Shown one piece after another: positions 39,793 to 41,829 of a stretch of 64,000 nt of DNA. The first letter of the stretch is position 1; the number at the start of each line of letters is the position of its first letter. The position numbers and the translations under genes are program-made. Source of the stretch: Candidatus Poribacteria bacterium. GTDB lineage: Bacteria; Poribacteria; WGA-4E; WGA-3G. The notes under the pieces were generated by a model. The model was not told the origin of the DNA and ran no database searches. It saw nothing but the letters and a program-made list of their open reading frames with translations. The stretch covers positions 291 through 64,290 of the forward strand of contig JAPOZO010000005.1 in the NCBI GenBank assembly GCA_026706025.1. The letters are read 5' to 3'.

Positions 39793-41829
39793 CTACTTCA
39801 AAATCACCATCTTCCGCAACAACGAGCGTTTATCCGTTATCAATTGATAGAAATAAACACCTGTCGCCACGCGTTCACCTAAATCGTTGCGACCATCCCA
39901 ATACGCTGCACGGCTGCGGGCAGTGTAGTGTCCTGCTGGTTGATACCCGAAGGCTAAATGTCGAATTGCGATTCCTCGCGTATCATAAATGACAATCTGC
40001 ACGTCGCTCGAATTTGCCAATTGATATGGTATCCATGTCTCCGGGTTGAAAGGATTCGGATAGTTGGGCAATAGTATCGTTTCTTGCGGGGTCAACACCG
40101 CCAAGAGCTTTTCTAAGAAGCGAATACCTCTTTGTGATGCTACATCCGTCAGGTTTAGGCGTTGTGCTTGTGTGAGCCAACTTTGGACATCAGCGGCGGT
40201 AAGCATAGCAAGTATTTGTGGATGGACAGAAGGCGCATCTGCCGTGTTTCCAAACGCAGCAGCCACTTTAACTAAGTCTACTATATCGACTATCCCATCA
40301 CCGTTGACATCCGCCTCGTTCTCTCCCATCTGTCCAAAATTTGAGCTGACGAGTGCCAAATCTAAGATATTTACGACACCATCGCTGTTGACATCCTCAG
40401 CGCGGTATACTGATTCAGTCCCTGTACTGCCCTCCACTATGGCATCTTCCGCTATGTCCCCTACCGCTATACGGTTTTCAACACAAGGGAACAAACGCTC
40501 CCCCTCTGGATTAACAAAAATGGCTTGGGTTAGGAGAAATCCCGATGCTTTGGCATCAACAACCTGAAATGTTATAGTTGCAAGTGTGCCATCACCGTTC
40601 TTGCCCTCCACATCCGCTGATGCCAGTGTTACATAATTTTTCTCGACAACTGGTGCTGTAAAGAACGCTTCATCAGATAGGTACTCACCTTTATCACTTG
40701 AAAAATAAATGAAAACATCAGGGTCAAATACTACAGTTGCCTGATATCCCGCCACATTTTCTCCACCTACAACGTTGATGGAAATAGTGAGTTGTTCCCC
40801 AATAGTTAGTGGTTGAGTCAAGTCCGGAGATATACGCACAATGGCAGGCGTGGTGGTGACAGTTGCGGTGAGGTCCCACAAGATGACCGGACCCAGACCT
40901 CCACTTGCGAGAGTGCTACCATCCGGACTAAACGCTACGCTTACGAGTGCTCCCTGATGTCCTATGAGGACAGTTTTAAGCTGACCCGATGCTACATCCC
41001 ATAAACGCACTGTTTGGTCATGCCACATCCCTGCACTTGCGAGGGTGCTACCATCCGGACTAAACGCGATACTCTCGATGCCCACCAAATGCCCAGTGAG
41101 GATAGCATTAAGCCGATTCGATGCCATGTCCCATAAATGTACCGTATTAGTGCCCGCGCTTGCGAGGGTGCTACCATCCGGACTAAACACTACACTTCTG
41201 GTCCAACTCTGATTCCCTAATATGAGTGAGGCTTTGCGCTGCCTTGATGCTACATCCCACAAGTGCACCGTACTAATGCCCGCGCTTGCGAGAGTGCTGC
41301 CATCTGGACTAAACGCTACACTAAAGACATCATCCGTGTGCCCTACGAGGATAGCTTTGGGTTTACCCGATGCTACATCCCATAAACGTACAGTTTGGTC
41401 ACCCCATCCTGTACTCGCGAGAGTGCTGCCATCCAGACTAAACGCTACACTTTCTACTCGATCCGTATGTCCAGTGAGGACAAATTTCTGTTGCTCAGAC
41501 TCCACGTCCCATAAACGCACCGTTTTATCCAGACTTCCACTTGCGAGGGTGCTACCATCTGGACTGAACGCTACACCCGTGGCATTGTGCGAATGTCCTG
41601 TGAGGACGGATTTGAGCTGTCCTGATGCCACGTCCCATAGACGTACATTTCCATCCCAACCTCCACTTGCGAGAGTGCTACTATCTGGACTGAATGTTAT
41701 TCTATAGATAGATTGTCTCGGCTCTAAGATGGCTTTTTGTTGTGGTGGAAAATCTGCGGCAAAGGTGTTGATCGAAAATAGAGTTAGAAGTATGAGTATG
41801 AATAAACTTATAATTGTTTTTGTCATCAA
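39793..41829 (-). CDS. Secreted multidomain protein: WD40 beta-propeller (about 8 repeats), cohesin-like domain, type I dockerin, and Por-secretion-tail / FlgD-Ig-like C-terminal domain
   Basis: A signal peptide (MMTKTIISLFILILLTLFSINTFA) is followed by WD units (FSPDGSTLAS...VRLWDV). A cohesin-like region runs ISPDLTQPLTIGEQLTISINVVGGENVAGYQATVVFDP...TLATITFQVVDA. The dockerin duplicates are DVNSDGVVNILDLALV and DVNGDGIVDIVDLVKV. The C-terminus LPNYPNPFNPETWIPYQL...VIYDTRG..IRHL..G.Q.AG.Y......YWDGRNDLGERVATGVYFYQL matches the TIGR04183 / PF13860 pattern. Confidence 0.85.
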   Translation of the reverse strand: MMTKTIISLFILILLTLFSINTFAADFPPQQKAILEPRQSIYRITFSPDSSTLASGGWDGNVRLWDVASGQLKSVLTGHSHNATGVAFSPDGSTLASGSLDKTVRLWDVESEQQKFVLTGHTDRVESVAFSLDGSTLASTGWGDQTVRLWDVASGKPKAILVGHTDDVFSVAFSPDGSTLASAGISTVHLWDVASRQRKASLILGNQSWTRSVVFSPDGSTLASAGTNTVHLWDMASNRLNAILTGHLVGIESIAFSPDGSTLASAGMWHDQTVRLWDVASGQLKTVLIGHQGALVSVAFSPDGSTLASGGLGPVILWDLTATVTTTPAIVRISPDLTQPLTIGEQLTISINVVGGENVAGYQATVVFDPDVFIYFSSDKGEYLSDEAFFTAPVVEKNYVTLASADVEGKNGDGTLATITFQVVDAKASGFLLTQAIFVNPEGERLFPCVENRIAVGDIAEDAIVEGSTGTESVYRAEDVNSDGVVNILDLALVSSNFGQMGENEADVNGDGIVDIVDLVKVAAAFGNTADAPSVHPQILAMLTAADVQSWLTQAQRLNLTDVASQRGIRFLEKLLAVLTPQETILLPNYPNPFNPETWIPYQLANSSDVQIVIYDTRGIAIRHLAFGYQPAGHYTARSRAAYWDGRNDLGERVATGVYFYQLITDKRSLLRKMVILK

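Follow-up and report, generated by a model that had tools for sequence, protein, structure and literature searches.

A conserved cohesin–dockerin cassette with a sorting-type tail in WD40 and other repeat proteins of Poribacteria

[quoted passage not shown] The segment from cohesin to tail constitutes a conserved C-terminal cassette that we detect in at least 2,443 protein clusters (50% identity) at E ≤ 1e-30. Judged from these sequence matches, the cassette family is very large, is specific to Poribacteria and is defined by this common C-terminal unit. The sharing of one cassette suggests a cellulosome-like display of host-like binding domains on the cell surface.

Results

Architecture of the WD40-cassette protein

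The gene is an uninterrupted minus-strand open reading frame of 678 codons (39793..41829, coordinates that include the stop codon) within the 64-kb stretch of DNA that was analysed (the window). The likely translation start is an ATG at 41826, the codon that follows the listed TTG start. Promoter and terminator scans stayed at chance level, and we found no plausible operon partner among its neighbours.

A preliminary description of this DNA had proposed that a WD40 propeller, a cohesin, a dockerin and a Por-tail-like C-terminus are combined in one polypeptide, and every one of these domains scores above its curated HMM threshold, with PF00963, PF00404, TIGR04183 and PF13860 all passing their cut-offs. 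From the N-terminus, the protein consists of a signal peptide, seven WD40 blades, the cohesin, a flexible linker, a two-repeat dockerin, a helical module and a C-terminal beta-sandwich (Table 1).

Table 1. Positions of sequence features in and around the WD40-cassette gene
Feature	Protein residues	Position in window	Strand	Evidence
Shine-Dalgarno-like AAGGAG		41833..41838	-	6 nt upstream of ATG 41826; direct sequence reading
Signal peptide, Sec-type, MMTKTIISLFILILLTLFSINTFA/AD	1-24	41758..41829	-	Inspection and Kyte-Doolittle hydropathy scan
Seven WD40 blades	~38-322	40864..41718	-	PF00400, 202 bits vs cut-off 27, 7 stretches
Cohesin	~330-455	40465..40842	-	PF00963, 41.0 bits vs GA 24.1
Flexible cohesin-dockerin linker	456-478	40396..40464	-	pLDDT <50 (AlphaFold2); highest entropy in cassette
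Dockerin	479-530	40240..40395	-	PF00404, 38.7 bits vs GA 22.9
Three-helix module (helical hairpin), no Pfam family	~537-579	40093..40221	-	AlphaFold2 model, conservation
C-terminal beta-sandwich, T9SS type-A-like / FlgD-Ig-like	588-678	39796..40068	-	HMMs; AlphaFold2 pLDDT >90

The protein had also been described as secreted, and the N-terminus does carry a signal peptide, made up of a basic n-region and a hydrophobic core of 16 residues, with T-F-A as its small-x-small site. This is the sole hydrophobic segment of the protein, and a similar N-terminal segment is present in 105 of 143 family representatives. The seven WD40 blades follow in register, set by an FSPDGSTLAS motif and with shortened b-c loops in blades 4, 5 and 7, and are expected to form one closed beta-propeller. 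The blades are not the product of recent DNA duplication, since a tandem-repeat search returned a single 126-bp repeat (1.8 copies, 78% identity). Among close homologues, the variable WD40 positions cluster in the b-c loops and in those that follow GH.

AlphaFold2 modelling from family alignments covered the C-terminal part of the protein, as the cassette and as the hairpin with the tail. The cohesin model is a confident beta-sandwich (pLDDT ~90) that resembles solved cohesins at Foldseek TM scores of 0.6-0.74, including the non-cellulosomal 2xdh and 2jh2 and the type I 5nrm; the 50 best listed Foldseek matches are all cohesin-containing chains (E 6e-8 to 2e-5). The dockerin is made up of two F-hand repeats of ~22 residues, DVNSDGVVNILDLALVSSNFGQ and DVNGDGIVDIVDLVKVAAAFGN; in both (DVNSDGVVNILD and DVNGDGIVDIVD) the calcium-ligand positions 1, 3, 5 and 12 (D1, N3, D5, D12) are intact. 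Across 70 family members the calcium-loop residues are invariant or at least 90% conserved, and in the family consensus the two repeats are near-identical to each other, as in dual-binding-mode dockerins. The solved dockerin 2y3n_B matches the sequence at E 9e-6, and the NagH dockerin is a weak sequence match.

Between dockerin and tail, the model places helices at aa 537-542, 545-557 and 563-579 (model residues 3-8, 11-23 and 29-45; pLDDT ~90). W, G, L and P positions in this module are invariant, and a family-specific HMM detects it in every cassette. Hairpin and tail modelled together give a confident unit (pLDDT 91, pTM 0.79). The helical module is an addition to the preliminary description, from which it was absent.

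The cassette is shared by proteins with diverse payloads

Of the 79 genome loci with family members, 78 come from Candidatus Poribacteria MAGs, in which a chromosome carries several copies. The architecture is neither rare nor isolated. Among the 150 matches listed, the cassette ends at the C-terminus or, in P0387, P0425 and P0430, no more than ~55 residues from it; a short match, P0503, comprises an internal part of the cassette only. Payloads include WD40, LRR, YWTD (LDLR-B) and beta-helix domains, and a single 6,421,138-bp contig encodes both WD40-cassette and beta-helix-cassette proteins.

The cassette is much better conserved than its payload. Sequence entropy is 1.12 for the WD40 region against 0.47-0.77 for the cassette modules, the dockerin having the lowest value in the protein (0.47), and identity to the syntenic orthologue in L001 is 56% for the WD40 region, 72% for the cassette and 74-93% for the flanking genes.

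Module number is mostly constant: 183 of the 239 proteins with module matches have a single cohesin and a single dockerin, arranged in a constant order. Some members have unequal numbers, with three cohesins, two dockerins, or two cohesins and one dockerin. An apparent third cohesin in relatives of ~1,060–1,115 aa was rejected, as these proteins really have two cohesins, the second of which is split into two HMM matches; this correction covered the ~1,060–1,115-aa relatives in a tally that also includes shorter proteins (435–621 aa). Most of the apparently stand-alone "cassette-only" proteins (330–365 aa) start inside a WD40 blade and have no signal peptide, and we therefore treated them as truncated gene calls.

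The tail resembles both T9SS sorting domains and FlgD

The tail exceeds the cut-offs of TIGR04183 (28.0 vs 23, aa 590-676), PF18962 (28.6 vs 27) and PF13860 (30.3 vs 27), in each case by a small margin. It contains the invariant 14-residue motif NYPNPFNPETWIPY, together with WDGRN, GVYFY and RKMVILK-COOH, and it reaches the last residue of a protein that begins with a signal peptide. Its fold is a seven-stranded Ig-like sandwich to which FlgD Ig domains and genuine T9SS C-terminal domains (CTDs) match equally well: Foldseek recovers FlgD (3osv), the CTDs of PorZ and PorU, and, at TM 0.66-0.69, the NucA, RemZ and RemA CTDs in the T9SS translocon.

The preliminary description had read the C-terminus as a T9SS type-A sorting or FlgD-Ig-like pattern. 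The HMM matches bear out the class, but the string quoted for it is nearer to the family consensus than to the literal sequence, which has IYD, IRHL and VATGVYFY where VYD, VR.L and VASGVYFY had been given. We rejected identity with the FlgD flagellar hook cap itself: only the Ig-like part matches (PF13860), the score for NF005176 is 20.6 against a cut-off of 230, and Pfam searches of the neighbouring genes found no flagellar genes.

A PorV/PorQ-family barrel is encoded near cassette genes

In agreement with the preliminary description, we found no PorV, SprA, PorU or GldM homologue in the window using local HMMs and Pfam searches of 20 window ORFs. This absence says little, because a PorV/PorQ-family protein is encoded elsewhere in poribacterial genomes. 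Poribacteria encode a conserved outer-membrane barrel of this family on the same chromosomes as cassette genes. In six species the barrel gene lies 0.1-5 kb from a cassette gene and its product matches NF033709 at 100-114 bits (cut-off 90). The barrel is 60-92% conserved and is annotated by NCBI as PorV/PorQ-family. Its best model is 'PorV2', but it misses the equivalog cut-offs for PorV, PorQ and PorV2 alike, and its proximity to cargo genes represents one syntenic arrangement inherited by the six species, not six independent events. The protein encoded upstream of the PorV2-like gene was considered as a PorU candidate and proved instead to be a DUF6785/DUF6784 membrane protein.

A wider search for Por genes had been proposed together with the domain assignments, and it yielded this barrel but neither SprA nor PorU: a scan of 1.63 Mb of poribacterial DNA for SprA, PorU and GldM detected no homologue. 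This is a weak negative, as each locus in the sample represents <0.4 % of its genome. The local HMMs for the scan came from Bacteroidota sequences of SprA, of GldM and, with the CTD removed, of PorU (PeerJ supplement).

Discussion

A putative surface network of binding proteins

With moderate confidence, we infer that the WD40-cassette protein is a secreted, surface-located 'eukaryote-like' binding protein that is sorted by its tail and joined to its paralogues in a network by Ca²⁺-dependent pairing of cohesin and dockerin. In such a system the protein would cross the inner membrane via the Sec pathway, and the C-terminal sandwich would serve as the signal for outer-membrane sorting and attachment. 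A PorV-like carrier would recognise the sandwich, as PorV does for type A CTD substrates in Bacteroidota (PMC10994853). Ca2+-dependent binding at the surface would pair the dockerin of one molecule with the cohesin of a second cassette protein, giving head-to-tail chains, and members with two or three cohesins would act as branch points, producing a surface network that presents many repeat-domain binding modules. The top face of the WD40 propeller could then provide a variable ligand-binding surface aimed at molecules of the sponge matrix or the host.

The preliminary description had interpreted the protein as a self- or hetero-oligomerising surface scaffold. Its interpretation as a whole is partly supported, and the scaffold idea, which is strengthened by the family members that have two or three cohesins or two dockerins, is the best reading available. 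With SprA, PorU and GldM undetected in the 1.63 Mb sample, and in view of an earlier report discussed below, a complete T9SS behind it would be hypothetical.

Alternative readings

The protein might instead be a released effector, from which the tail is removed after export so that a soluble and possibly oligomeric WD40-cohesin-dockerin protein binds host proteins in the sponge mesohyl. Release and attachment are both known fates of type A CTD cargo (PMC10994853). An action on host cells has been widely proposed for the eukaryote-like repeat proteins found in sponge symbionts (PMC3909097), and the fast-varying WD40 loops would suit a released effector. We nonetheless consider release unlikely, as a payload that acts alone after release would hardly account for the strong conservation of cohesin, dockerin and helical module, and the multi-cohesin members resemble scaffolds.

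It appears distinctly improbable that the tail has no sorting role, being a generic FlgD-like Ig domain whose HMM matches reflect common ancestry, with cohesin and dockerin serving as spacers and the protein remaining periplasmic or reaching the surface by another route. FlgD (3osv) is the nearest solved sequence to the tail and heads its list of fold matches, the tail scores lie just a few bits over the cut-offs, and SprA, PorU and GldM were found neither in the 1.63 Mb sample nor in the window, in line with a 2014 paper that reported no Por structural genes (PMC3909097). Set against this, the proteins with this domain start with a signal peptide and always carry the domain, with its K-rich last strand, at their extreme C-terminus, its invariant motif suggests a common recognition partner, the phylum has a conserved PorV/PorQ-family gene, and the calcium ligands of the dockerin are under strong constraint.

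An intramolecular latch, in which the dockerin binds the cohesin of its own chain to give a closed monomer whose opening is controlled, for instance by Ca2+, and no intermolecular network forms, would account for the prevalence of members in which the two modules occur exactly once each and in constant order, and for their equal conservation. Binding in cis looks awkward, though, given the short linker (7-27 residues between HMM envelopes across the family, median 10) and a whole-cassette AlphaFold2 model in which inter-domain packing is not confident (pTM 0.55, linker pLDDT <50). The members with two or three cohesins or two dockerins also misfit a 1:1 latch. Mean-field DCA of 347 cassette sequences (Neff 212, low power) found couplings only within domains or with the inter-domain linker, and none between the cohesin and dockerin cores, which at this low power also counts against pairing between molecules. 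Overall we rate a latch as very improbable.

That the protein belongs to an ordinary cellulosome, as one piece of a multi-enzyme complex for degrading polysaccharides, is scarcely credible: cohesin and dockerin modules, here with PDB matches, are the cellulosome hallmark and Poribacteria have been described as degraders of complex carbohydrates (Kamke 2013), but the protein has neither a catalytic domain nor a CBM, the observed family payloads (WD40, LRR, YWTD, beta-helix) are of the repeat or binding type and not CAZymes, and anchoring would proceed via a CTD-like tail instead of SLH or sortase.

Relation to known systems

The architecture had been called uncharacterised, which appears to hold for its cohesin–dockerin part but not for the combination of WD40 repeats and a TIGR04183 Por tail, which Kamke et al. 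2014 (PLoS One) reported from Poribacteria in a single-cell study stating "no Por structural genes found" (PMC3909097). Those proteins share with ours the phylum, the WD40 repeats, the Por-type sorting domain and the question of the export route; the 2014 paper (PMC3909097) contains no occurrence of cohesin or dockerin and no shared cassette, whereas a PorV/PorQ-family gene is found here. We found no paper describing the poribacterial cohesin–dockerin part. Counts of cohesins and dockerins may be given in the CAZy screen of Kamke 2013.

Scaffoldins normally combine cohesin and dockerin in a single chain, and clostridial scaffoldins use Ca2+-dependent cohesin–dockerin assembly to build higher-order complexes from modular parts. 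Clostridial and adaptor scaffoldins (such as C. thermocellum CipA and A. cellulolyticus ScaA; 4fl4, 3kcp, 3l8q) likewise carry both modules and provide fold matches, but they are Gram-positive proteins with SLH or sortase anchoring, a type II dockerin with X-module and enzyme cargo, none of which is seen in the poribacterial protein. A parallel in its C-terminus is the scaffoldin-like protein of Ca. Stygibacter (Cloacimonadota), in which cohesins in tandem occur with a T9SS-type CTD (Williams et al. 2021, PMC8542988). Both systems are inferred from MAGs and both join cohesins to a T9SS-type CTD, but Ca. Stygibacter has a giant scaffoldin with cohesins and CBMs and places its dockerins on separate enzymes (PMC8542988), whereas each poribacterial protein has its own cohesin and dockerin and a non-catalytic repeat payload.

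Cohesins and dockerins are also used outside cellulose degradation, as surveyed by Peer et al. 2009. The compact cohesins (~125-140 residues) of the C. perfringens GH84 toxin complexes (2w1n, 2jh2, 2ozn) and of A. fulgidus (2xdh) rank with the best fold matches, at TM ~0.7; those pairs occur in other organisms with other payloads, and have no CTD tail and no large paralogous expansion. With Bacteroidota type A CTD cargo (such as RemA, NucA, RgpB), the poribacterial protein shares a signal peptide, a seven-strand C-terminal sandwich, the TIGR04183/PF18962 matches and the CTD fold. It differs in that its host is not a member of the Bacteroidota, that of the T9SS parts only a PorV/PorQ-family protein has so far been found, and that its tail is of a FlgD_ig-like subtype with an unusually invariant NYPNPFNPETW and is preceded by a conserved helical module.

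A more far-reaching extension, which we offer tentatively and regard as unlikely in its full form, would be a phylum-wide, cellulosome-like self-assembly in which non-enzyme units (WD40, LRR, YWTD, beta-helix), each with cohesin, dockerin and sorting tail, build a Ca2+-dependent surface network. Export would then use a reduced or novel CTD-sorting pathway consisting of the PorV2-like barrel, possibly with the co-transcribed 12-TM DUF6785/DUF6784 protein, and lacking canonical SprA/GldKLMN.

No genomic signature of sponge symbionts is cited more often than their eukaryote-like repeat proteins, and how these are delivered to the surface and organised there has stood as a question since at least 2014. 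If the cassette works as its modules suggest, one mechanism would anchor and multimerise hundreds of different binding proteins per genome. Among known non-enzymatic uses of the cohesin–dockerin system it would be the largest, and it would place CTD-type sorting outside the Bacteroidota/FCB group. The PorV/PorQ-family barrel of Poribacteria, newly identified here within a few kb of a cassette gene in six species, offers a concrete candidate carrier. The cohesin, the dockerin and the tail are each compact and clearly delimited, so that they can be produced and assayed with no need to culture the symbiont, which makes the delivery and organisation of these proteins a testable question.

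Domain anatomy of a poribacterial WD40-cohesin-dockerin protein

Curated HMMs bear out each of the domains that a preliminary description had read in the target protein: WD40 (202 bits over seven stretches; cut-off 27), Cohesin (41.0 bits; cut-off 24.1), Dockerin_1 (38.7 bits; cut-off 22.9), and a Por-like tail matched by FlgD_ig (30.3 bits; cut-off 27), Por_Secre_tail (28.6 bits; cut-off 27) and TIGR04183 (28.0 bits; cut-off 23). By sequence the target belongs to the WD40, cohesin and dockerin families, and its dockerin comprises a pair of F-hand repeats, each with its Ca²⁺ ligands intact. 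Cohesin membership extends to fold, with the modelled domain matching solved cohesins at TM 0.6-0.74 in Foldseek comparisons, including the non-cellulosomal proteins of A. fulgidus and C. perfringens.

The mechanical start codon of the target is TTG, with an ATG coming next at 41826. An AAGGAG motif lies 6 nt upstream of this ATG, a spacing that makes it, rather than the TTG, the most likely start. The N-terminus (MMTKTIISLFILILLTLFSINTFA|AD) is the sole hydrophobic segment of the protein and resembles a Sec signal peptide.

Family alignments served to build two AlphaFold2 models, one of the whole cassette (the C-terminal cohesin, dockerin, helical module and tail) and one of the helical module and tail. 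The former (pLDDT 80.9 overall, pTM 0.55) comprises, in order, a cohesin sandwich modelled with confidence, a linker that is disordered, the dockerin helices, the helical module and a C-terminal sandwich; the latter reaches pLDDT 91 and pTM 0.79.

The cassette defines a large family with diverse payloads

The cohesin-dockerin-helical module-tail combination is a single unit. Exhaustive HMMER searches with target residues 322-678 alone retrieved 2,443 cluster representatives (50 % identity clusters) at E ≤ 1e-30 and 21,312 at E ≤ 1e-10. The preliminary description had called the architecture not a characterised type; the target itself is no isolated case but an unexceptional representative of a very large family. 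Among the 150 matches listed, the cassette is C-terminal in nearly all, after 100-2,000 other residues; three stop 20-55 residues before the C-terminus and one is short and partial. Preceding payloads include WD40 domains of 7 or ~13-14 blades, LRR, LDL-receptor-B/YWTD, right-handed β-helix and Laminin_G_3 domains, and one 6.42-Mb contig encodes both WD40-cassette and β-helix-cassette proteins. Module number also varies: inspected relatives of ~1,060-1,115 aa contain two cohesins and one dockerin, P0364 and P0365 three cohesins, and P0371 two dockerins. Apparent cassette-only proteins mostly begin within a WD40 blade and were rejected as a stand-alone form, being truncated gene calls.

Among 63 close full-length homologues, entropy per column is 1.12 in the WD40 part and lower in the cohesin (0.77), tail (0.70), helical module (0.63) and dockerin (0.47). 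Within the WD40 part it is concentrated in the b-c loops and the loops after GH, which together form the top face of a WD40 propeller. The tail opens with the motif NYPNPFNPETWIPY, in which 12 of 14 residues are invariant and the other two at least 90 % conserved across 70-75 members.

Distribution and genomic context

With one genome scanned per species, at least 591 stretches encoding relatives were identified, and 79 loci were kept. All but one (78/79) are from Candidatus Poribacteria MAGs, frequently with 2-3 copies per chromosome. The exception (L072, VXLY01000011.1), binned as Rhodothermaceae, is probably mis-binned rather than a case of transfer, since this 5.3-kb contig belongs to the same series of sponge metagenomes.

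The window is syntenic with another poribacterial locus (L001, MAG JAJEET010000047.1), flanking genes being 74-93 % identical. Identity between the target and its orthologue there is 72 % across the cassette but drops to 56 % across the WD40 part. A split in this orthologue, due to a frameshift or to misassembly, yields a 384-aa 'short' protein (P0122).

The target's immediate neighbours are unrelated genes, with no evident operon partner among them. Remaining gene content fits Poribacteria, an assignment supported by two PhyH (phytanoyl-CoA dioxygenase) genes and an FG-GAP/ASPIC-UnbV protein; a 2014 study of the phylum stressed the ASPIC/UnbV domain and includes PhyH work in its reference list (PMC3909097). 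The TPR-trypsin fusions of the window are another expanded 'eukaryote-like repeat' architecture.

Features of the window and of related poribacterial loci
Location	Strand	Feature
7963-11558		ABC transporter gene pair just upstream of second WD40 gene
11650-13599	+	Second WD40 protein of 649 aa with 11 Pfam WD40 stretches (535 bits); lacks cohesin, dockerin and tail
16716-25559	-	Four consecutive genes, three with TPR repeats fused to trypsin-like peptidase (1349, 725, 511 aa)
23003-23992		329-aa ORF among the three fusion genes
34084-34839	+	PhyH
39435-39770	-	111-aa ORF, same strand as target, 22 nt downstream of its stop; no Pfam match, no homologue in L001 (tblastn)
39793-41829	-	Target, 678 uninterrupted codons
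43384-44427	-	PhyH
44445-44912	-	155-aa ORF, tandem peptide repeat EQGIEQGIEQGIEQGIEQGVEQG; CSIP/LFNT repeats on opposite strand
56864-58543		FG-GAP/ASPIC-UnbV protein
L001:10001-12039 and L001:14071-14946		Target orthologue in two reading frames, broken near WD40/cassette junction; extra WD40 gene between GNAT and Met-zincin genes, absent from window
L055:2096-5187		DUF6785/DUF6784 and PorV2-like pair
L042:4906-8054		Same pair
L037, L076, L036, L075		Same pair
L055:8147-9307	-	IS200/IS605-type TnpB gene between PorV2-like and cassette genes (one species)

A PorV/PorQ-family barrel in Poribacteria

Kamke et al. (2014; PMC3909097) reported a TIGR04183-like domain on poribacterial eukaryote-like proteins, "especially WD40 repeats", but found no Por structural genes and therefore left the export pathway open. 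Using T9SS HMMs made from Bacteroidota proteins of a published supplement, we searched six-frame ORFs of the window and 79 poribacterial loci (1.63 Mb total). The PorV HMM gave six matches, all exceeding the NCBIfam PorV/PorQ family cut-off (100-114 bits versus 90); they score highest with "putative type IX sorting system protein PorV2" (120-139 bits, below the equivalog cut-off of 325). This PorV2-like protein, named "PorV/PorQ family protein" at NCBI, is 60-92 % identical across Poribacteria. SprA, PorU and GldM HMMs had no match in the 1.63 Mb, a weak negative because this samples well under 1 % of each genome. Within the window none of the four HMMs matched, in line with the earlier remark that it contains no T9SS component genes.

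PorV/PorQ-family and cassette genes occupy the same chromosomes (matching contig sizes 5889692, 4605424, 4833177 and 1457052). In six species the PorV2-like gene lies 0.1-5 kb upstream of a cassette gene, a proximity that is suggestive, not statistically strong, because it reflects one conserved syntenic arrangement. A DUF6785/DUF6784 protein (~655 aa, ~12 predicted TM) is always encoded directly upstream of the PorV2-like gene in these species, the two six-frame ORFs being just 3 nt apart in L037, and the two proteins may form an inner-membrane/outer-membrane pair. Both annotated loci (L055, L042) have a GHMP/galactokinase-like gene further upstream, and six further cassette loci (L047, L073, L028, L057, L007, L030) contain DUF6785 paralogues. 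The TnpB gene within the L055 block indicates that mobile elements disturb this arrangement.

A proposed model for surface display

In Bacteroidota, PorV acts as the carrier for type A CTDs: it binds them in the translocon and delivers them to the surface (PMC10994853). We propose that the target would be exported by Sec, that a PorV-like carrier would recognise its tail before surface attachment, that the dockerin of one molecule would bind the cohesin of another in a Ca²⁺-dependent manner, and that the variable WD40 top face would bind ligand. The preliminary description was correct in what it observed and partly right in how it interpreted this.

One alternative to surface attachment is that the target is a released effector. 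Another is that the tail has no sorting role. In Foldseek comparisons the tail model resembles both FlgD Ig domains and authentic T9SS CTDs (those of PorZ and PorU, and those of NucA, RemZ and RemA inside the translocon at TM 0.66-0.69), and its predicted fold cannot discriminate between these readings; the tail agrees with type A T9SS CTDs in sequence, position and fold. The cohesin and dockerin could instead form an intramolecular latch. Binding in trans is favoured by unequal module numbers in some members, by the short cohesin-dockerin linker (median ~10 residues between HMM envelopes) and by the lack of confident intramolecular packing in the AlphaFold2 model; an underpowered test on the cassette gave no inter-module covariation signal. 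That the target is a true cellulosome part is contradicted by its lack of an enzyme or CBM.

The closest precedents for the target are the poribacterial WD40-CTD proteins of 2014, a scaffoldin from Cloacimonadota that combines cohesins with a CTD (PMC8542988), clostridial scaffoldins with cohesin and dockerin on a single chain, and the non-cellulosomal cohesin-dockerin pairs of C. perfringens. A full-text search of incomplete coverage found no paper joining Poribacteria or sponge symbionts to cohesin/dockerin or T9SS components. The family-level picture, in which a conserved cohesin-dockerin-tail cassette would display eukaryote-like domains alongside a putative PorV-like carrier, appears undescribed so far. 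It concerns a phylum that has been described as having no Por genes, and it is amenable to experiment.
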